Below, piece by piece: positions 5,043 through 18,653 of a stretch of 64,000 bases of DNA (position 1 is its first letter; every line of letters begins with the position of its first letter). The position numbers and the translations under genes are program-made. The notes beneath the pieces were generated by a model. It was not told where the DNA came from and made no database searches. It saw only the letters and a list, made by a program, of their open reading frames with translations. The stretch is from Pelagibacteraceae bacterium AG-337-I02 (lineage in GTDB: Bacteria > Pseudomonadota > Alphaproteobacteria > HIMB59 > GCA-002718135), in contig QBZY01000001.1 in the NCBI GenBank assembly GCA_003282155.1, forward strand, positions 85,991 through 149,990, read 5' to 3'.

Positions 5043-6194
5043 CTAAATCTTAAACAATTCTTGAGACAAATCAGGAAGTTCATCTCCCCAAAAAACTTCT
5101 TTACGCAAAAATTCTGGATCTTGGTTAAAGCAAACAGACATTGCTGAATTATAAACAGCTCTTGAGTCAATTGTAGAGTTTAGATCTCTTCCTTCAAATA
5201 ATTCTTTCTTTTTCAGTCCAGGCCATTCTGTATAAACTTGAGATTTTTTTAGTAAGCCGCCAGCCATTAGTATTGCACTTCCATATCCATGTTCAGTACC
5301 ATAGCCTCCATTTTGTTTTATAGTTCGACCAAATTCTGTCAAAGTTAAAATTAGAGTATTATCAAACGCGTGGCCCAGATTTTCATATAAAATTGTAACA
5401 ATTTTATTTACCTCTTCAAGTTCATCGGCATGAGCTCCATCAACGCCTCCTTGAGCAGCATGAGTATCAAAACCATCTAAATCAAATACAGCAACTCTAG
5501 GACCACTTTGATCTTTTAATTGTTTGGCAGCTTCAAGGGCAAGTTTTTTTCTATCGTCAGAGTCAGTAGCTATTTGCATGGACAATGGTCTTTGTCTAAT
5601 TGTATCAAGTGTCGATTTAATTAGCTCATTATGCTCACCTTTAAATTCATTATAAATTTGATCTATTAAATTAGTTTCAACAAAATCTGGTGATGGAAAA
5701 AAATTATTATTTTGTGGCACACCTCTTAATAAAAGTGGCATTGGTAATGATATAGCCAAACCTTTTCCTATAATATTTGAAGCTAGTAACCCTCTACCAA
5801 GCCATCCGGTTTTTTCTTTGTATGGAATGTGAGCTCCTGTTTCCATCAAATTTTGACCATCAAAATGAGATCTGCCTGTGTAGGGAATATTCGTTGCATG
5901 TACAAATGCTGCTTGATTAGTTTGCCAGAGCTTATGAAAAATTTCTAATTTAGGGTGAAGACCAAAATCACTATTTAAATTAAGAACATCTTCTAAAATA
6001 AGTTTTTTTCTTAATTTTCTTAGACGTTTATCTCCAATAACAGGAACAGCTGTTAAACCATCCATACCTCCGCGAAGTGATATAATAATTAGATTTTTTT
6101 TCTGCATTGAAGCAAAACTAATTTTTGGGAAATATCCTGAAAGAAATAGTGTTGTTGATCCTCCAATTAAAAAATTTCTTCTTGTGCAGTTCAT
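5043..6194 (-). CDS. DUF1501-family protein with Tat signal
   Basis: N-terminal TRRNFL twin-arginine motif; LRGGMDGL, RSHFDGQ, GFDTH, TEFGRT, GTEHG. Confidence 0.88.
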   Translation of the reverse strand: MNCTRRNFLIGGSTTLFLSGYFPKISFASMQKKNLIIISLRGGMDGLTAVPVIGDKRLRKLRKKLILEDVLNLNSDFGLHPKLEIFHKLWQTNQAAFVHATNIPYTGRSHFDGQNLMETGAHIPYKEKTGWLGRGLLASNIIGKGLAISLPMPLLLRGVPQNNNFFPSPDFVETNLIDQIYNEFKGEHNELIKSTLDTIRQRPLSMQIATDSDDRKKLALEAAKQLKDQSGPRVAVFDLDGFDTHAAQGGVDGAHADELEEVNKIVTILYENLGHAFDNTLILTLTEFGRTIKQNGGYGTEHGYGSAILMAGGLLKKSQVYTEWPGLKKKELFEGRDLNSTIDSRAVYNSAMSVCFNQDPEFLRKEVFWGDELPDLSQELFKI

Positions 6195-7627
6195 GCTTTC
6201 AATACTCCAGGTAAATTACAAATGACTCCATACTTTTGACCTAAATCATAATCCAAAGTGCCAAACCTAAAATTTTCAATAAGTGATGCCATATTTTCAT
6301 GATCTTCAAAATTATTTTTAAGACAAGCTAAAATAAAATCATGGGATCTGTTTCTAGATTTAACAAGTATTGGAAGCTCAACAGAAGAGAACCAAAAGCG
6401 ACGTAATAATAATTCTGGTGATACCCAATCTGCCTCAAAATCACTCCAACCATTTGGTTGTTTTGCACGATAAGGTGAATGACCAATTTCTCTAAGTATC
6501 CATGATAGTTGTCTTTGTCTTCTATTTGGCTTTGAACTGAAGGAATAATTCATTTTTTCGGGAGAAAGAGGAATATTTAAATCAAACATTCTAGACAATT
6601 GCATAAACCATATTTCTGGTGGATGAAATTTATGTGTATTCTCATTATGTTTGTAAGCTTGCGTAATAACTGCTTTGTGAATTTCAATTAGACTTCCATT
6701 GGATTTGTTCCATGCTTCTATTACTGGGTTAATCATATCTTCAGTTGGTTCATCTGTAATAAAATGCCTGCATAATTTTGTTGAAACAAATTTGATACAG
6801 ATTGGGTGTGTTGCTAAATCATGAATTACCTTTGCAAGTTCTCTTTTTGCATCATTTTTATATTTAACTCCTAAAACTATTTTGTCTCCTTTTTGATGCA
6901 TTTCTTGATCAAACCATATATCTCCTGTCTCTAAATTTTTTCTATCCCATTTGTGTGCCCAACCTGTCATAATATAGGCTAACTGAATAACATCATCCTG
7001 AGTGTATCCAGCATTTGGTGAAACAGTATGTAATTCTAGTAGTTCTCTTGCATGATTTTCGTTTATAGTTTCTCGCCACTCCATTCCTTTTTTAGAATTG
7101 GGACCAAAAGATTCTGAGTTATCAAGATGGTGAATCATGCACCATGAAGTGGTAACCGACTGCACCATCTCTTCAAAAGTTTTAACCATATTAGGTCTAA
7201 TAATTTCACGTTGATAAGGCCCAGTGCTAAACTCTGCCAAAAAATCTTTTTCACTTATTGCAAAGTGATTTCCCCAAAAAAGCCAAAAACGCTCAAAAAC
7301 AGGCTGTTTGGAATACTTAGTTTGATAATGACGAATAGCATGTTCATTTAATTCAAAATACCTTTCACCAGTTTTTATTCTTAATTCATCTTTTGCTTTT
7401 CTATAGGCATGTTTGTCATTTTTAAATTTTTTTCTTAAGATTTCTCTGTCTCCATATACCCACTCTCCATATTTTTTTCTTAATTCTTTTTCTGTTGGAA
7501 TTATTCCAGGCCATAAGAGATTGGGTATAGTATCTAGTTGATTTAATGCCCAATTAAGAGGATCTTTATCTGGTTTATCATTTGGTGATAAACCAAATGC
7601 TACTCGTCTATAAAATTTTAATGACAT
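6191..7627 (-). CDS. DUF1800-family protein
   Basis: FWGNHF, HLDN, INENHARELLELHT, YTQDDV, PNGW; 4-nt overlap with the DUF1501 gene. Confidence 0.88.
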   Translation of the reverse strand: MSLKFYRRVAFGLSPNDKPDKDPLNWALNQLDTIPNLLWPGIIPTEKELRKKYGEWVYGDREILRKKFKNDKHAYRKAKDELRIKTGERYFELNEHAIRHYQTKYSKQPVFERFWLFWGNHFAISEKDFLAEFSTGPYQREIIRPNMVKTFEEMVQSVTTSWCMIHHLDNSESFGPNSKKGMEWRETINENHARELLELHTVSPNAGYTQDDVIQLAYIMTGWAHKWDRKNLETGDIWFDQEMHQKGDKIVLGVKYKNDAKRELAKVIHDLATHPICIKFVSTKLCRHFITDEPTEDMINPVIEAWNKSNGSLIEIHKAVITQAYKHNENTHKFHPPEIWFMQLSRMFDLNIPLSPEKMNYSFSSKPNRRQRQLSWILREIGHSPYRAKQPNGWSDFEADWVSPELLLRRFWFSSVELPILVKSRNRSHDFILACLKNNFEDHENMASLIENFRFGTLDYDLGQKYGVICNLPGVLKA

Positions 7628-7679: not shown

Positions 7680-8330
7680 ATGAAAAAAATACCCCTAAAA
7701 ATTTGTGGCATAACAAATGTAAAATCAGTTGAAGTTGCATATAAAAATAAAATAAAATCATTAGGTTTTGCAAGTAAAAGTTTAAATGGACCAAACACAG
7801 CTAGTGATAAAAAAATTCAATCATTAATTAAAGAATGTAAAAATTATAAAATAGAATCAGTTCTTTTGACTCGTTATGTATCACTAGATAAAATAATTGA
7901 ACAAATTGATTTCACAAAACCAAAGACAATTTCATGTTCGTATCATTTTTCAAAAAAGGATTTATTAAGAATAAAAAATATATTTAAAAGATTAAAAATT
8001 GGTATTGCAATTAACCCTGAAAATTTTAATAAAAATTATATTGAGTCAATTAAAAAAATTGTTGATGTGGTTTATTTTGATATGAATGTTTATAGAAAAA
8101 AAAGCATTAAAAAATACTCATTGAAAAAAAGTATTAAACAAATAGAATTTATTAAAAATAAAAATATTCCTGTTTATATTGGTGGTGGTATAGATAAGAA
8201 AAATGTTTCTAATATTCTTAAACAAACTTCACCTTTTGGTTTGGATATTTCAAGAGGTTTAAAGAATAACCGTAATTTAATATCTCAAGAAAAGCTTAAA
8301 GATTTGTTAAATCAAATTTCTATAGGATAA
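7680..8330 (+). CDS. Divergent phosphoribosylanthranilate-isomerase (TrpF)-like TIM barrel
   Basis: LKICGIT, VYFD, IGGGI..NV, PFGLDISRG; lacks the usual QLHG motif; no trpB/trpA nearby. Confidence 0.8.
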   Translation: MKKIPLKICGITNVKSVEVAYKNKIKSLGFASKSLNGPNTASDKKIQSLIKECKNYKIESVLLTRYVSLDKIIEQIDFTKPKTISCSYHFSKKDLLRIKNIFKRLKIGIAINPENFNKNYIESIKKIVDVVYFDMNVYRKKSIKKYSLKKSIKQIEFIKNKNIPVYIGGGIDKKNVSNILKQTSPFGLDISRGLKNNRNLISQEKLKDLLNQISIG

Positions 8331-8807
8331 TTTTTTAATAATATATTTATTTGTTAATTCTTTAGATAATTGATTAATAGATTTTTTTTCAACTGGATGG
8401 AGAAGAAAGGGTTTAATATCTAATATAGGATGTAAAACAAAATCTCTTTCTTTGGCTCTTGGATGCGGAATAATTAGATTGTTGTAATGATACTTACTAA
8501 TTCCAAAAAAAATTATATCAATATCGATACTTCTAGGTCCGTTAACAATTCTTTTATTTTTTTTTAATTTTCTTTCAATTTTTTGAATAGAATTGATTAA
8601 TTGAAGAGGCTGTTGATTGGTTTTTAATATAATTGCACTATTGTAAAAGTTTGACTGATATTTATATCCATATGGGGCTGAAACATAAATATTAGCAAAC
8701 TTACTTATGTTCCCAATTTTATTTAACTCCCTTACTGCACTACGTAAATTAAGTATTGAATTACCTACATTTGACCCAAGGGCTATGATAGTTTCAGTTT
8801 GAAACAC
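8307..8807 (-). CDS. folK: Hydroxymethyldihydropteridine pyrophosphokinase
   Basis: IALGSNVG, FYN, GPRSIDIDII, IPHPR..ERDFVL. Confidence 0.95.
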   Translation of the reverse strand: MFQTETIIALGSNVGNSILNLRSAVRELNKIGNISKFANIYVSAPYGYKYQSNFYNSAIILKTNQQPLQLINSIQKIERKLKKNKRIVNGPRSIDIDIIFFGISKYHYNNLIIPHPRAKERDFVLHPILDIKPFLLHPVEKKSINQLSKELTNKYIIKKLSYRNLI

Positions 8808-9138
8808 TTACTGATTCTGCTCCATATTTTTTGGCAACAGCTGTTTTATTTATATTTATTTTTATATTTTTGATTTTAAATTTTTTTTCAAGCACCTTCG
8901 ATGTTTTAGAAATTAAATGTTCAAGAGTGTGTGACTTTGATTCTTTAATATAAGTCTTAAGAAATTTTGTAATGGCAGAATAATCTTTAACACTATTGAT
9001 ACTATTCAAATTTAAAGAGTCTTTTACTTTATAGTCAAAGGATAGAGTAACTTTGAGAAGTTGCTTTTTCTTTCTTTCAAGTTCTGTGATACCTAAATTT
9101 GCACTAATGGATAAGTTTTTTATTTCTACTTTAAACAT
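8794..9138 (-). CDS. folB: Dihydroneopterin aldolase
   Basis: GITELER...Q, DYS, TLEHL, K near C-terminus; lies between folP and folK. Confidence 0.85.
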   Translation of the reverse strand: MFKVEIKNLSISANLGITELERKKKQLLKVTLSFDYKVKDSLNLNSINSVKDYSAITKFLKTYIKESKSHTLEHLISKTSKVLEKKFKIKNIKININKTAVAKKYGAESVSVSN

Positions 9139-9944
9139 AACTTTTTAAAAATTTTTAATGACTGTGAAGTTTCTTTAACATCATGAACCCTAAATATATC
9201 AACACCCTTTTGATAACAATATAAAGCCGAAGCAATAGAGCCTCCTAATCTTTCATCAGCATTGCTTTGATCAATTAGATTTATCCAGCTTTTTCTTGAA
9301 GAGCCCAGCAGCAATCCATAACCTTTAAACTTAAACTGTTCAATTTTTTGCATGATCTCAATATTTTGATTTAAATTTTTGCCGAAACCTATTCCAGGAT
9401 CAAACCATACTTTAGTTGAAGGTATGCTTAATTTTTCTAATTGTTTAATTTTTTTTAAAAAAATTTTCTTAATATCCTGTACTACATTTTTATAAGAATT
9501 AATTTTAGATTGCATTATCTTAGGTGGAGCAGGTGTGTGCATTAAGATTAAACCTGTTTTGAATTTTTTAGATAAATAAAATAAATCCTCAGAACCACCA
9601 AACACATCATTAATTATATGAGCACCCATGCTTAATGCATATTCTTGTGTCTCAATTTTATTAGTATCAACAGAGATAACAAATTTGTTTTTTGGTAATT
9701 TTTTTAATATAGGATCTAGCCTTTTAACTTCTTCATTATAGGTAAGAGGTACAGAGCCAGGCCTAGTACTTTCAGCTCCTATATCAATAATATCTGCTCC
9801 ATTTTCTGTCATTTTCTTTATATTATTTAGGGCATCCTTTGTCTTAAAACTCTTTCCACCATCACTAAAAGAGTCGGGTGTAACATTACATATGCCCATG
9901 ACTGTTGGCTTATTAAATTTAAAATTATGTTTACCCAATTTCAT
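9126..9944 (-). CDS. folP: Dihydropteroate synthase
   Basis: MGICNVTPDSFSDGG, DIGAESTRPG, DPGIGFGK, SRKS, RVHDV. Confidence 0.97.
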   Translation of the reverse strand: MKLGKHNFKFNKPTVMGICNVTPDSFSDGGKSFKTKDALNNIKKMTENGADIIDIGAESTRPGSVPLTYNEEVKRLDPILKKLPKNKFVISVDTNKIETQEYALSMGAHIINDVFGGSEDLFYLSKKFKTGLILMHTPAPPKIMQSKINSYKNVVQDIKKIFLKKIKQLEKLSIPSTKVWFDPGIGFGKNLNQNIEIMQKIEQFKFKGYGLLLGSSRKSWINLIDQSNADERLGGSIASALYCYQKGVDIFRVHDVKETSQSLKIFKKLCLK

Positions 9945-9945
9945 T

Positions 9946-10695
9946 TTATAAAACTTTTGAATATTCTTTTAATAAAGACTTGTACATCTTAAGAGAAGAT
10001 CTATACCAATTTAATTGATCAATAGAAGAAATACTTACAACCCCCTTGCCAGACCCAACCAGAAGTATTTCACTATATTCATAAAAGTTAGATATCAGAA
10101 TATCTACTTTTTTAATCTTGTATGGAATTGTTTTAGTTAAATATGATAAAGTTATTCCTAAGTAATATGAATTCTTCGGAATAAATAATTGATTATTTTT
10201 TACAAAAATTAAGTTTGTGGTCGACCCCTCTAAAATTTTACTTTTATTATAAAAAAGAATTTCTTCTTTTTGTAAATTAATTTTTTTTTGTAAAGAAAGT
10301 ATTTTTTTATATTGTAAGTTTTTAAAAGAAGGTAATGTTCTTTGGTATCTATAGATATAAGCAGTAAAATTTTTTTCTTCTTTATTTCTTTTTCGCAAAG
10401 ATAAAGAAATTAATTTTTTTGTAATTGCCACTCTTAATAAGTGATCATAGTTTTTAATTTTAGAATTAGTATTTATAAAATTAATCAGAAATTTTTTTGA
10501 AATTTTAAAACTAATACCAAAGAAATTTGAATCTTTGTTAAGTTTTTTTAAATGTTGATCAATTAAAACTAAGTTTGGTTTTTTTCCTGAAATCCTTATG
10601 GTTGTAAAAATACCATTATATCCCCAAAGAGAATTAAACTTTACATTTTTTAAATCTTTAACGTGATATGATTTTTTTAATAAGATATTTTCCAT
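9946..10695 (-). CDS. pabC: Aminodeoxychorismate lyase-like (class IV PLP aminotransferase fold)
   Basis: GIFTTIR, ILEGSTTNLIF, LGIT; position in the pab/fol operon. Confidence 0.75.
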   Translation of the reverse strand: MENILLKKSYHVKDLKNVKFNSLWGYNGIFTTIRISGKKPNLVLIDQHLKKLNKDSNFFGISFKISKKFLINFINTNSKIKNYDHLLRVAITKKLISLSLRKRNKEEKNFTAYIYRYQRTLPSFKNLQYKKILSLQKKINLQKEEILFYNKSKILEGSTTNLIFVKNNQLFIPKNSYYLGITLSYLTKTIPYKIKKVDILISNFYEYSEILLVGSGKGVVSISSIDQLNWYRSSLKMYKSLLKEYSKVL

Positions 10696-11215
10696 TTGGA
10701 GTTAAAAAAGAGTCTGGGTGAAACTGAAATCCATATACTTGATTAATATCATCTTCAATTGCCATTGCCACGTTTGTTTTTGCACAACGCATTGTGATTG
10801 CCATTGATTTTGAAATAAATGGCTCTTTTAATTTAAGTGAATGATATCTACCACCAAGGAGATCTACATTTTTTTTAAAAATTGATTTGTCACTTATAAT
10901 TTTTATAAGACTTTGATAACCATGTAAGATATTTTTTTGTTGAACTATTTTACCTCCTTCAGAGTGCACTATGTGTTGGAAACCTAGGCAGATTCCGAGA
11001 ATTTTTTTCTTTCCCTTATATTTTTTATAAATCTCTGAAGTTAAGGGATAATCTTTTGGTTCACCTGGCCCAGGTGAAAGAACTATTGTTGAAGCTTTAC
11101 GAAGTTTTTTATAATTAATTTCATAGTAATTAGATACAACAGTCGGCTCGATACTATCTAATAAATGTGCAAGATTGTATGTAAAGGAGTCTTCGTGATC
11201 GATTAAATAAATCAT
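10658..11215 (-). CDS. pabA: Aminodeoxychorismate synthase glutamine amidotransferase subunit
   Basis: IDHEDSFTYNL, SPGPG, GICLG, RYHSL, QFHPDS. Confidence 0.88.
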   Translation of the reverse strand: MIYLIDHEDSFTYNLAHLLDSIEPTVVSNYYEINYKKLRKASTIVLSPGPGEPKDYPLTSEIYKKYKGKKKILGICLGFQHIVHSEGGKIVQQKNILHGYQSLIKIISDKSIFKKNVDLLGGRYHSLKLKEPFISKSMAITMRCAKTNVAMAIEDDINQVYGFQFHPDSFLTPNGKYLIKKIISR

Positions 11216-12420
11216 TAATTAAACAAATCTAATAGAGATTTAGCCTTTATATAGTTTTCATTATATTCTTTTTTTGCAGTGCTTCCTAATATTACTCCAC
11301 TAGCAACAGATAATTCAATAGTATTTTTAAAATTAAGTAGTGTCCTTATCATTATATTAAAACGCATATCTCCATTCGAATGTATGATACCAAAACTGCC
11401 AGTATAAATATTTCTATCAGATTTTTCTTTTTTATTTAAAAGTTGAATAGTGCTTATTTTTGGACAACCAATTACTGATCCACCAGGCATTAACGATGAG
11501 ATTATGTCATGGTTAGTTATTTTGTTTTTCAAAACACCTTTAATTGTTGTAACGTAATGGAAGAGATCTCTGTATTCTTCAACTGTTTTTAATTTATCTA
11601 TTTTTACAGAACCAGTTTTACAAATTTTTGAAAGATCGTTTCTTTCCATGTCGACTATCATATTGTGTTCTTTAGTTTCTTTTTCATTTCTTCTAAAAAA
11701 AGCCAAAGCTTTATTGTGATTTATTTTTTTCGTTTTTCTTAAAGTACCTGCAATAGGTTTAGTTTTTATCAGATCTCCTTTTTTTAATAACAGTGTTTCA
11801 GGTGAGCAACTAATGATACTATAACCTTTATCTCTAATTAGAAAACTTTCAGGAGACTCATTTATTTGCATTAATTTCCAGAAAAGATCTATCGCGTTTA
11901 TATTGCCTTTTTTTGAGTAAGTCTGAGCAATTTTTATTTGATAAGTTTTCCCTTGCTTAATATTTTTTGAGAAATCGTCAAACAGTTTGGAGTACTGTTG
12001 TAGAGTTAAATTTAAATTAAAATTCTTATTTAATTTCGAGTATTTTTTTGTATTAGTTTTAATATTTCTAAAATTGGTTTTGGTACTTTTAATTATAATT
12101 TTTTTACCAATACTAATTTTTGTTTTAGGTTTATAAAAAAGTCCACTATAAAAATTTGTAGTTTTTTGTTTTGGAAGTTTTATTCCAATATTATCACAAA
12201 GTAGTTTATATCCAAAAAAACCTATGTAACAATTTAAACCGTCAATACTTGAGCTCTTTTCTTTAGATTGTATATTTAAAAATTTTTTTATATTTTTTTT
12301 ATCTACAATTATTTTTTTAGAAAAATCAGTATATACGTCAAAGCCATTATCATTTTTATAAATAATGATAGACTTATCAGATTGATATAATTTATCTAAA
12401 TATTCGTTATTGTTCAGCAC
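11215..12420 (-). CDS. pabB: Aminodeoxychorismate synthase component I
   Basis: SPE, KPIAGT, EHNMIVDMERNDL, PGGSVIGCPK, NIMIRT; co-operonic with pabA/pabC/folP. Confidence 0.85.
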   Translation of the reverse strand: MLNNNEYLDKLYQSDKSIIIYKNDNGFDVYTDFSKKIIVDKKNIKKFLNIQSKEKSSSIDGLNCYIGFFGYKLLCDNIGIKLPKQKTTNFYSGLFYKPKTKISIGKKIIIKSTKTNFRNIKTNTKKYSKLNKNFNLNLTLQQYSKLFDDFSKNIKQGKTYQIKIAQTYSKKGNINAIDLFWKLMQINESPESFLIRDKGYSIISCSPETLLLKKGDLIKTKPIAGTLRKTKKINHNKALAFFRRNEKETKEHNMIVDMERNDLSKICKTGSVKIDKLKTVEEYRDLFHYVTTIKGVLKNKITNHDIISSLMPGGSVIGCPKISTIQLLNKKEKSDRNIYTGSFGIIHSNGDMRFNIMIRTLLNFKNTIELSVASGVILGSTAKKEYNENYIKAKSLLDLFN

Positions 12421-16190: not shown

Positions 16191-17192
16191 ATGAATAACA
16201 TGCAAGGTAAGTTTCCAAGTACAAGACTTAGACGTAATAGAATGAAAGAATTTTCTCGTCGTTTAGTTGCTGAAAATACACTTAGTGTTAATGATTTAAT
16301 TTTACCTCTATTTGTATGCGAGGGAAACAAAGTTGATGATCCTATTATTTCAATGCCTGGTGTTAGCAGATACTCTATTGATAATCTTTTATATCAAGTA
16401 GAGAAAGCTGTTAAATTTAATATTCCTGCAATTGCTATATTTCCACAAATTGAAAGTGATCTTAAAAATTCTGAGGGAAGTTTAGCTGTAGATGAAAATA
16501 ATTTGGTGTGCAGATCAATTAAAAGTATCAAAAAGGATTTTCCAAATATTGGTATTATATGTGATGTTGCCTTAGATCCTTTTACTGATCATGGGCATGA
16601 TGGTTTAGTTATAAGTGATAAAATAGATAATGATAAAACTTTGGAGGTTTTGGAACAACAGGCTCTAGTCCAAGCAAATGCTGGTTGTGATGTAATCGCC
16701 CCGTCAGATATGATGGATGGAAGAGTTGGAAGAATAAGAACTGCATTAGATTCAAATAATTTAACAGATACTCTCATACTTTCTTACGCTGCTAAATATG
16801 CTTCAGGTTTTTACGGTCCTTTTAGAGATGCTATAGGCTCTGGTTCTAATTTAGGTAAAGATGGTAAATTAACATATCAAATGGATCCATCGAACAGTGA
16901 TGAAGCAATTAGAGAAGTTGGATTAGATATAAGTGAAGGAGCAGATATGGTAATGGTTAAGCCTGGTATGCCTTATCTTGATATTATTTCTAGAATAAAA
17001 TCAGAATTTAAAGTTCCAACCTTTGCCTACCAAGTATCTGGTGAATATTCGATGATAAAAGAGTCAATTATTAAAGGTTGGCTAAATGAGAAAGTTATAA
17101 TGGAATCTCTTTTATCTTTTAAAAGAGCTGGAGCAAATGGTATACTGACTTACTTTGCATTAGAAGCTGCTGAAAAATTAAAAAATGAATAA
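16191..17192 (+). CDS. hemB: Porphobilinogen synthase
   Basis: [34 protein letters not shown]. Confidence 0.97.
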
Positions 17193-17658
17193 CATTCAAT
17201 TTGAAAAAAGAAAATCTATAGAACAAGTTGAGGAGTCAAACGAGCTTGCTCCAAAATTTGATTCGAATGGTCTTATACCAGTTGTAACGACTGACTTTTC
17301 TTCAGGTGAGTTACTTATGCATGGCTATATGAATGAAGAAGCTTTTAAAAAAACTATAAGTTTGGGTGAAGCTGTATATTATTCTAGAAGTAGAAATACT
17401 CTTTGGCATAAAGGTAAAACAAGTGGATTAACTCAAAAAATAAAAGAAATAAGAATTGATGATGATCAAGATTGTGTTTGGTTAAGAGTTGATGTCAAAG
17501 GTGGTGCCAGCTGTCATGTGGGATATAGATCATGTTTTTATAGAAGCATTCCTTTGGATGGTTCTAGCTCTAAAGTTATTCTCAAATTTGAAGAAAAAGA
17601 AAAAGTTTTTGATCCTGAAGAAGTATACAAAGGTGCCTTAAATCCTACTAAACTATAA
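17185..17658 (+). CDS. hisI: Phosphoribosyl-AMP cyclohydrolase
   Basis: [29 protein letters not shown]. Confidence 0.95.
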
Positions 17659-18248
17659 TGTCAGACAAATTAAAGTTTATTGAAACTAGTAAACTTCCTA
17701 CAGATATTGGAGAGTTCACTGTACATGCATTTACAGATGAAAATGAATCTAAAGATCATTTGGCAATATGTATGGGTGACTTGCTTACCGATGAACCAGT
17801 TTTATCAAGAATTCATTCTCAATGTATTACAGGTGAATCTTTTTTTAGTATGAGGTGTGATTGTAGATTCCAACTAACTGAATCATTAAAACAAATTGCT
17901 CAAAATAGAAGAGGAGTTATTTTTTATCTACAACAAGAAGGAAGGGGTATTGGTCTTTCAAATAAAATTAAAGCATATAGTTTACAAGACAAGGGGCTAG
18001 ATACCGTTGAAGCTAATCATCAATTAGGTTTTAAAGATGATGAGAGAACATATGAAAATATAGCTGGAATGGTAAAATATTTGGCGATTAAAAAATTAGA
18101 CTTAATAACTAATAATCCAAAAAAAATAAAAGCGCTGGAAGACATGGGTATCAAAGTAAATCAAAGAGTTCCTATTTTCTCAGATACCAATAAGTACAAT
18201 GAAAAATATCTCTCGACTAAGAAAAGTAAACTTGGTCATCTAATATAA
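17658..18248 (+). CDS. ribA: GTP cyclohydrolase II (standalone)
   Basis: RIHSQC...RCDC, QEGRGIGL, KAY, DTVEAN, TNNP.K, KLGH. Confidence 0.93.
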   Translation: MSDKLKFIETSKLPTDIGEFTVHAFTDENESKDHLAICMGDLLTDEPVLSRIHSQCITGESFFSMRCDCRFQLTESLKQIAQNRRGVIFYLQQEGRGIGLSNKIKAYSLQDKGLDTVEANHQLGFKDDERTYENIAGMVKYLAIKKLDLITNNPKKIKALEDMGIKVNQRVPIFSDTNKYNEKYLSTKKSKLGHLI

Positions 18249-18653
18249 GTGAAAGCAGATAGTTTAATAAAAAAACTTAATATGATTAGTCACCCTGAAG
18301 GGGGGCATTATGTCGAAAATTTTAAAAACGATAATGTAAGTCAAATTTACTATTTATTAAAAAAAAATGAGAAGTCTCATTGGCATCGACTAACTAAAAA
18401 TGAAATATTACATTTCTATTCTGGGGATCCTCTAGAAGTTTTTACATCTAGTGATGGAATTGATTATGAGCTTTTCTCATTAGGATCAGATGATAAATAT
18501 ATTTACACGGTAAAAGCGAATACATGGTTTTCGATGCGATCTGCTGGATCTTACAGCTTAATTGGGTGCACTGTCGCACCTGCTTTTGATTTTAATGATT
18601 TTGAGCTTGCCCCTGCGACGTGGCGACCTGAAAAATTCAAAATTGAGTTATAG
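18249..18653 (+). CDS. Cupin_5 (DUF985) protein
   Basis: HPEGG, IYYLL, SHWHR, CTVAPAFDF.DFEL. Confidence 0.9.
   Translation: MKADSLIKKLNMISHPEGGHYVENFKNDNVSQIYYLLKKNEKSHWHRLTKNEILHFYSGDPLEVFTSSDGIDYELFSLGSDDKYIYTVKANTWFSMRSAGSYSLIGCTVAPAFDFNDFELAPATWRPEKFKIEL

Follow-up and report, generated by a model that had tools for sequence, protein, structure and literature searches.

How does a bacterium that carries folB, folK and folP obtain its pterins when its genome yields no GTP cyclohydrolase I (FolE)? The question is raised by a 64,000-nucleotide stretch of DNA (hereafter the window) from Pelagibacteraceae bacterium AG-337-I02, in which an operon of six folate genes faces a gene that we call trpF2 (7680..8330, plus strand). 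Its product, TrpF2, is a divergent (beta-alpha)8 barrel of 216 amino acids (aa) from the TrpF family of phosphoribosylanthranilate (PRA) isomerases, for which we propose the role of a dihydroneopterin phosphate-making isomerase. An earlier note on this DNA, made from the sequence alone, had suggested a dedicated folate paralogue of TrpF that gives a free-living bacterium a FolE-independent route to pterins. The comparative genomics reported here supports that suggestion through co-occurrence, co-deletion, the residue pattern and the absence of FolE. TrpF2 is most likely a neofunctionalised PRA isomerase paralogue that belongs to the folate cassette and replaces GTP cyclohydrolase I (and FolQ), a reading drawn from genome comparison and residue conservation.

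Absence of FolE and linkage of trpF2 to the folate genes

The order was sampled with 52 genomes at least 85% complete, the genome of the window counted in, and completeness reaches 90% or more in 22 of them. None of the 52 genomes has a match to FolE (PF01227) above the cut-off, and a separate search found none in 41 relatives. All 17 genomes that carry the folate genes (fol+) and are at least 90% complete are without FolE by the same measure. FolE2 (PF02649) was found in none of 41 genomes, and neither enzyme was found in the genome of the window, as the proposal of the earlier note implies. Control genomes yielded the expected matches in each of these searches, and FolE is present in 143 of the 201 genomes sampled from the class. 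The fol+ genomes hold folB, folK and folP without folE, the gene set expected where the FolE step is bypassed.

The order was also searched with the window TrpF2 protein and with the HPPK (FolK) family. folK was found in 40 of the 52 genomes and TrpF2 in all 40 of these, at 37-100% identity; in two of them TrpF2 is a fragment at a contig end (genomes G049 and G053) and in a third it is split by a TAA codon (G071). TrpF2 is missing from 11 of the 12 genomes without folK, and the twelfth (G052) has a contig-end fragment. The copy in G071, a genome of the sister family, is broken by this single TAA (G071:C3:43948-44572) and may be a pseudogene or reflect a sequencing error. Three of these 12, all from the window's own genus, were not counted as losses of the folate genes: G057 and G052 have gaps in their assemblies at this place, and G022 yielded no trace of the 19-kb region as a whole.

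The same arrangement is seen in public sequences. Among the best 80 of 149 matching public loci, 79 carry folK, which in 78 is adjacent to and convergent with trpF2, and 51 have the full order DUF1800, trpF2, folK, folB, folP, pabC, pabA, pabB, DUF2141, cysS. Those public loci with trpF2 that carry names belong to uncultured marine Alphaproteobacteria. In three studies, RNA libraries gave contigs that match parts of trpF2 with at least 92% identity and leave several parts of the cassette uncovered; because such libraries can contain DNA, their support for expression is weak.

The block of seven genes has different neighbours in the two families. In the window's family it is flanked by DUF1800 and by DUF2141-cysS, and the sister family has these seven genes between katG and a solute-binding-protein gene. 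In one sister-family genome (G034, locus L132:7490-10309) trpF2 follows katG after 3 nt on the same strand and may be co-transcribed with this catalase-peroxidase gene. The folate-less species of the sister family have kept both flanks, at 66-78% nucleotide identity, and between these conserved flanks exactly the 4.8-kb block from trpF2 to pabB is gone. The flanks lie on one contig in G025 (a closed genome), G032 and G072, where they are about 2.7 kb apart, and in G037, where they are about 4 kb apart; in G029 they lie on separate contigs. In place of the cassette, G025 (L138:2887-5432) has genes for an NMT1/THI5-like binding protein, an ATP-binding cassette (ABC) ATPase and a permease, and the same three transporter genes stand beside the binding-protein gene in G029 (L146). 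This transporter may be an uptake system standing in for the lost pathway, and its position suggests that uptake substitutes for the cassette instead of belonging to it. TrpF2 acts as the seventh gene of the cassette, because it co-occurs with folK and was deleted together with the folate genes while G025 kept its canonical trpF.

The TrpF2 protein and the separate canonical TrpF

TrpF2 scores 31.7 bits against Pfam PRAI (PF00697; gathering threshold 22.7), and many of its close relatives have no precomputed PRAI match. Against the NCBIfam trpF equivalogs the window protein reaches at most 42 bits, where the cut-offs are at least 172. TrpF2 proteins score 36-59 bits on these models and the resident canonical TrpF proteins 150-194 bits, the latter also below cut-off (194 versus 216). 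Identity between TrpF2 and the resident TrpF is 20-30%. The AlphaFold2 (AF2) model of TrpF2 is a (beta-alpha)8 barrel with a predicted local distance difference test (pLDDT) score of 95.7, and Foldseek ranks 1-10 in the PDB are all TrpF (E 5e-14 to 4e-11). A HMMER search of 1.84 billion cluster representatives returned just three or four full-length TrpF2 clusters, followed by ordinary TrpFs at 30% identity or less, and an Atlas search for look-alikes of TrpF2 gave no clusters beyond the family's own. In a phylogenetic tree all 29 TrpF2 rows fall into a single clade (Shimodaira-Hasegawa-like approximate likelihood ratio test, SH-aLRT, 100), whose stem measures 2.0 changes per site and which stands apart from the canonical TrpF of the order. 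The tree gives no supported sister for TrpF2 on this long stem and does not separate duplication from transfer.

A search for longer proteins gave no fusion of TrpF2 with RibA or FolK, which is weak evidence. One metagenomic open reading frame (ORF) of 426 aa (P0271) has radical-SAM Pfam matches and a part 60% identical to TrpF2; it is known from one contig, as the sole member of its cluster, and could be an artefact of gene calling.

Across the 79 unique sequences of the TrpF2 family, which span 37-100% identity, 31 columns are invariant. Of the invariant residues, K7, C9, G10, G29, P38, G169, G170, D189 and S191 are common to canonical TrpF, whereas S32, G37, N39, T40, L62, L63, S87, N136, Y138, G168, K195 and N199 are unlike the canonical copies. 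The earlier note had described a protein that keeps the catalytic cysteine (KICG), the aspartate (YFD) and the phosphate loops and has lost QLHG. The alignment bears this out: KICG, GGG, D-I-S-R-G and YFD with an invariant Asp are all present, and SCSY stands in place of QLHG. In a profile alignment to Thermotoga TrpF, C9 corresponds to Cys7, N39 to Arg36 (SPR to GPN) and S87 to His83 of QLHG; the loop GG(S/T/N)G, which follows strand 6 in canonical TrpF, is missing, and N136-x-Y138 is found instead. C9 and D134 are invariant in all 79 sequences, and D134 lies at the end of the predicted strand 6 of the AF2 model. TrpF2 and canonical TrpF have in common the phosphate loops that follow strands 7 and 8, G168-G169-G170 and D189-x-S191-x-G, of which G168-G170 and D189-x-S191 are invariant in 79 of 79 sequences. 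Arg36, His83 and the GG(S/T/N)G loop are what we take to be the anthranilate-side residues of TrpF. The residues of TrpF2 thus form the pattern of an enzyme predicted to have kept the Amadori chemistry and the 5-phosphate site, with a changed aglycone pocket.

In the assembly of the window's genome (1.45 Mb, 41 contigs, 79% complete) the window gene is the sole PRAI match, and trpF, trpA and a canonical trpB were not found. Contig C1 of this assembly starts inside folC (L150:1-456), and from there onward its first 3.7 kb are 89% identical to the closest relative, G055. In G055 (L149), folC is preceded by pyrF-trpF-trpB-trpA-accD, with a trpF that scores 155 bits against PRAI. Because C1 begins inside folC, after the trp genes of G055, the absence of trpF, trpB and trpA from the assembly is an assembly effect, and the canonical trp genes of this genome sit just past the end of C1. 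Canonical TrpF was found in 25 of 40 relatives (PRAI E 1e-33 to 1e-47), with one further partial match (E 5.5e-21). Its gene lies within pyrF-trpF-trpB-trpA-accD-folC, beside trpB wherever inspected, and in these relatives the divergent copy shows up as a second match to PRAI, a weak one. The canonical gene is also kept in cassette-less genomes, for instance G025. A second, canonical trpF beside trpBA, which the earlier note had named as a mark of a dedicated folate paralogue, is therefore found in the relatives, the window genome's own copy being cut off by the start of C1 in folC. As the same note had observed, no trp genes lie near trpF2: none was found in the window, and trpD and trpC are on contig C19. 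A TrpD-like match inside the window was discarded as weak (E 1.2e-7, far below the family cut-off).

A candidate route to pterins and its alternatives

The route that we propose would begin with GTP cyclohydrolase II (GCH-II, the RibA activity), which converts GTP to 2,5-diamino-6-ribosylamino-4(3H)-pyrimidinone 5'-phosphate. TrpF2 would carry out an Amadori rearrangement of this ribosylamine, with the retained cysteine as general base and the retained aspartate as general acid, and the 1-deoxyribulosyl product would close its ring to give 7,8-dihydroneopterin 3'-phosphate. A putative phosphatase would then provide dihydroneopterin for FolB, FolK and FolP, and PabABC would provide p-aminobenzoate (pABA). 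There is a precedent in Chlamydia trachomatis, whose TrpF (TrpF-CtL2), according to the available parts of Adams et al. (2014, mBio, PMC4161248), rescues E. coli folE; together with RibA it takes GTP to dihydroneopterin monophosphate (H2NMP), a bypass of FolE and FolQ, and it is still a PRA isomerase. We read TrpF2 as dedicated to a Chlamydia-type activity because FolE and FolE2 are missing while FolB, FolK, FolP and GCH-II are in place, together with the remaining folate genes of the window's genome, a dihydrofolate reductase (DHFR) gene on contig C6 and the partial folC at the start of C1. On these comparisons it is probable that TrpF2 is a dedicated Amadori isomerase that turns the GCH-II product into dihydroneopterin phosphate, as the Chlamydia TrpF does. 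We also lean, with some reserve, towards the broader view that TrpF2 is an enzyme family of its own, a dihydroneopterin-phosphate synthase dedicated to this reaction and no longer acting on PRA, and that the pterin branch of the order starts at GCH-II.

GCH-II was found in all 52 genomes of the order. The genome of the window has three homologues, two of them with an intact GCH-II domain. One of these is the stand-alone RibA of the window (17658..18248, plus strand; 196 aa; PF00925, GTP_cyclohydro2, 204 bits; NF001591 267 bits, above cut-off), in which the cysteine motif C-x10-C-x-C is intact. The other is a long form of 385 aa on contig C3, where the intact GCH-II domain stands behind a degenerate domain like that of 3,4-dihydroxy-2-butanone 4-phosphate synthase (DHBPS). 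RibB on contig C9 has a GCH-II domain without the cysteines, which presumably bind zinc in GCH-II. In the window's family, 24 of 28 genomes have the stand-alone ribA, in each case at a distance of 9-13 kb from trpF2; the two fol-less genera are without it. The earlier note had pointed to it as a possible partner of TrpF2, and this stands in part. The stand-alone ribA is plausible as a supplier of the TrpF2 substrate, but we rejected it as a dedicated folate partner, because the fol+ genomes of the sister family have long-form GCH-II only, and because in four fol+ genera it is the only intact GCH-II and must therefore also serve riboflavin.

A gene cluster on contig C3 (L145:5854-12373) was considered as a substitute for FolE. 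In the window's genome it combines a 6-pyruvoyl-tetrahydropterin synthase (PTPS; PF01242) with the long-form GCH-II, a RibD_C protein, an unknown gene, a GT1 glycosyltransferase, a dehydrogenase-like gene, a creatininase-family gene and a histidine phosphatase. PTPS was found in 33 of the 52 genomes: 30 of these have TrpF2, two are unsettled by assembly, and G029 has neither TrpF2 nor folK. We rejected the cluster as a substitute because many fol+ genomes are without PTPS; it is missing in at least six that are at least 90% complete (G034, G033, G060, G062, G063 and G064).

Several points weigh against the role proposed for TrpF2. PTPS normally uses dihydroneopterin triphosphate, and G029 (93% complete), without folate genes and TrpF2, retains the PTPS gene cluster; a pterin source independent of TrpF2 may therefore exist in the order. 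The Chlamydia TrpF keeps PRA activity and, in the available parts of PMC4161248, an ordinary TrpF sequence, so that remodelling of the pocket is not needed for the reaction and the remodelled pocket of TrpF2 could serve another substrate. The alignment of D134 to Asp126 of Thermotoga TrpF moves by 1-2 residues depending on the alignment method. We assume that in the Thermotoga enzyme Cys7 is the catalytic general base, Asp126 the general acid and Arg36 the residue that holds the carboxylate of anthranilate, and our literature search found no source for these assignments. The losses of the cassette are few events in related genomes, in at least two lineages and perhaps not many more, so the co-occurrence is not to be taken as a statistic. 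Because co-occurrence with folK is also co-occurrence with pabABC, it does not indicate which branch TrpF2 serves. The genome of the window is itself just 79% complete. Finally, we infer which substrate TrpF2 takes, which product it forms and that a phosphatase acts on it, and the activity assigned to TrpF2 draws on comparative genomics and the residue pattern.

Some of these points would fit other explanations. FolB, FolK and FolP might be fed by uptake of a pterin precursor (dihydroneopterin or neopterin from phytoplankton), with TrpF2 an accessory or unrelated gene that travels with the cassette. Streamlined bacterioplankton commonly depend on vitamin precursors, the known GTP-to-pterin enzymes are absent here, and PTPS without TrpF2 in G029 fits an external or other source of pterins. 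However, a passenger would hardly be kept in all 40 folK genomes, with 31 invariant residues over 37-100% identity, when the genomes are so small. The cassette also has no linked pterin transporter, and it is where the cassette has been lost that a transporter occupies the site. We therefore regard uptake as unlikely. We also doubt that an unrecognised enzyme does the job of FolE while TrpF2 performs another sugar-phosphate isomerization in pterin or folate metabolism, for instance on a formylated or modified pyrimidine ribotide. This would suit a pocket remodelled far beyond that of the bifunctional Chlamydia enzyme, and the second GCH-II, clustered with PTPS, RibD_C and a creatininase-family protein, indicates that the pyrimidine and pterin chemistry of these bacteria is not fully understood. 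Against it, no candidate gene follows the cassette in its distribution among genomes, the fol+ genomes named above are without the PTPS cluster, and the retained Cys, Asp and phosphate site of TrpF2 are consistent with Amadori chemistry on a ribosylamine 5-phosphate.

It is very unlikely that TrpF2 is a second, fast-evolving PRA isomerase for tryptophan and that its adjacency to folK is meaningless. TrpF2 does exceed the Pfam PRAI threshold, and some sources label its relatives phosphoribosylanthranilate isomerase, but other invariant residues have replaced the Arg36 and His83 positions and the GG(S/T/N)G loop, the same genomes hold a canonical trpF beside trpB, and in G025 TrpF2 was lost with the fol genes while trpF remains. 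We give hardly any credence to a role in the pABA branch, for instance on a hypothetical N-phosphoribosyl-p-aminobenzoate. Although pabABC also belong to the cassette and co-occurrence cannot split the two branches, the cassette holds no phosphoribosyltransferase, PabABC suffice to make pABA with no help from TrpF2, and we know of no intermediate of this type in folate synthesis.

Genes of the window and comparison with known systems

The six genes of the operon are on the minus strand. pabB (11215..12420), for aminodeoxychorismate synthase component I, scores 247 bits with PF00425 (Chorismate_bind), and its top NCBIfam matches are the PabB models TIGR01824 and TIGR00553 (243.8 and 234.6 bits, below their cut-offs). 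The glutamine amidotransferase gene pabA (10658..11215) scores 122 bits with PF00117 (GATase) and 124 bits, above cut-off, with TIGR00566 (trpG_papA). The next gene (9946..10695) encodes a pabC-like lyase of the class IV aminotransferase fold (PF01063, Aminotran_4, 82.8 bits); it matches the pabC and ilvE equivalogs weakly and below cut-off, and is taken as pabC, a name given by context. It is followed by folP (9126..9944) for dihydropteroate synthase (DHPS; PF00809 237.8 bits; TIGR01496 282 bits, above cut-off). The product of folB (8794..9138) belongs to the dihydroneopterin aldolase family (PF02152 59.1 bits; TIGR00526 51.1 bits, above cut-off) and reaches 47.5 bits on the folB equivalog, below its cut-off of 72. 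The last gene is folK (8307..8807; HPPK; PF01288 116.7 bits; TIGR01498 117.9 bits, above cut-off). pabB overlaps pabA by 1 nt and pabA overlaps pabC by 38 nt; a gap of 1 nt separates pabC from folP, which overlaps folB by 13 nt, and folB overlaps folK by 14 nt. trpF2 converges on folK, and the 3' ends of the two genes overlap by 24 nt.

The six-gene operon contains neither a GTP cyclohydrolase I nor a Nudix-type gene; neopterin pyrophosphatase was not searched for elsewhere in the genome. In composition, trpF2 (21% GC, 18% Lys) resembles the fol and pab genes (21-30% GC, 11-20% Lys), and the nine flanking genes have 30-39% GC and 7-11% Lys. The ORF coordinates, family scans and composition figures agree with the earlier note, which had described the overlapping operon and its convergent TrpF-like neighbour, the lack of GTP cyclohydrolase I in the block and an extreme AT and lysine bias common to trpF2 and the block.

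On the other side of trpF2 a DUF1800 gene (6191-7627) is divergent from it, and a 52-nt spacer made of A and T only separates the two. About 9.3 kb downstream, hisI (17185-17658), the stand-alone ribA and a gene for a DUF985 cupin (18249-18653) are arranged end to end: hisI and ribA overlap by one base, and the cupin ORF begins at the base directly after ribA. The DUF985 cupin is retained in a fol-less genus without stand-alone ribA.

The synthesis of folate and other pterins is regarded as having to start with GTP cyclohydrolase I, and Chlamydia, a host-dependent bacterium with a moonlighting enzyme, provides the only experimentally supported bypass. From the comparisons made here, it appears that free-living, very abundant ocean bacteria have given this chemistry a specialised gene of its own, and they offer a clean system for studying how an enzyme with a single task evolves from a promiscuous side activity. 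If TrpF2 is the proposed isomerase, the pterin branch of the whole order would share its first step with riboflavin, and genome annotations that report a missing folE or pterin auxotrophy would be wrong for these organisms. The unit trpF2-folKBP-pabCAB would then be movable, its presence or absence deciding folate prototrophy within single genera; in one genus, some species have the cassette and others the transporter in its place. trpF2 would serve as a marker gene for folate prototrophy in the lineage, and metabolic reconstructions that score folE as essential would miscall the carriers of the cassette.

Wolbachia and Chlamydia are listed as lacking both folE and folE2 in the available part of De Crécy-Lagard et al. 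(2007, PMC1971073). A 2026 paper (PMC13408713) predicts, in its available part, extensive folate auxotrophy in HIMB59 from absent FolK or FolP, and this agrees with the cassette-less species found here. A term search of the text of Getz et al. (2023, PMC10308909), as far as available, gave no mention of folate. Our literature search, with subscription journals outside its coverage, found no paper on the TrpF2 family.

TrpF2 shares with canonical TrpF (PF00697; Thermotoga maritima, PDB 1LBM and 1NSJ) the fold, the Cys of strand 1, the Asp of strand 6 and the phosphate loops after strands 7 and 8. It differs from it in the change of Arg36 to Asn and of QLHG to SCSY, in the replaced GG(S/T/N)G loop, in its low equivalog scores and in the lack of a trp context. 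PriA, the bifunctional HisA/TrpF of Actinobacteria, is likewise an Amadori-isomerase barrel in a second pathway, according to the available parts of PMC4161248; PriA is one enzyme of the HisA family with two substrates, whereas TrpF2 would be a dedicated extra copy of the TrpF family. With Chlamydia, the order shares the lack of folE and folE2, the retention of folB, folK and folP, and the availability of a TrpF-family barrel and GCH-II, and by analogy the proposed chemistry, an Amadori rearrangement of the RibA product, would be the same. In Chlamydia, as described in the available parts of the same paper, a single bifunctional TrpF lies outside the folate operon, and that operon has CT610 in place of PabABC. 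In the free-living marine bacteria described here there are instead two genes, a canonical trpF with trpBA and trpF2 with folK, and TrpF2, whose activity is predicted, is without the residues aligned to Arg36 and His83 of the Thermotoga enzyme.

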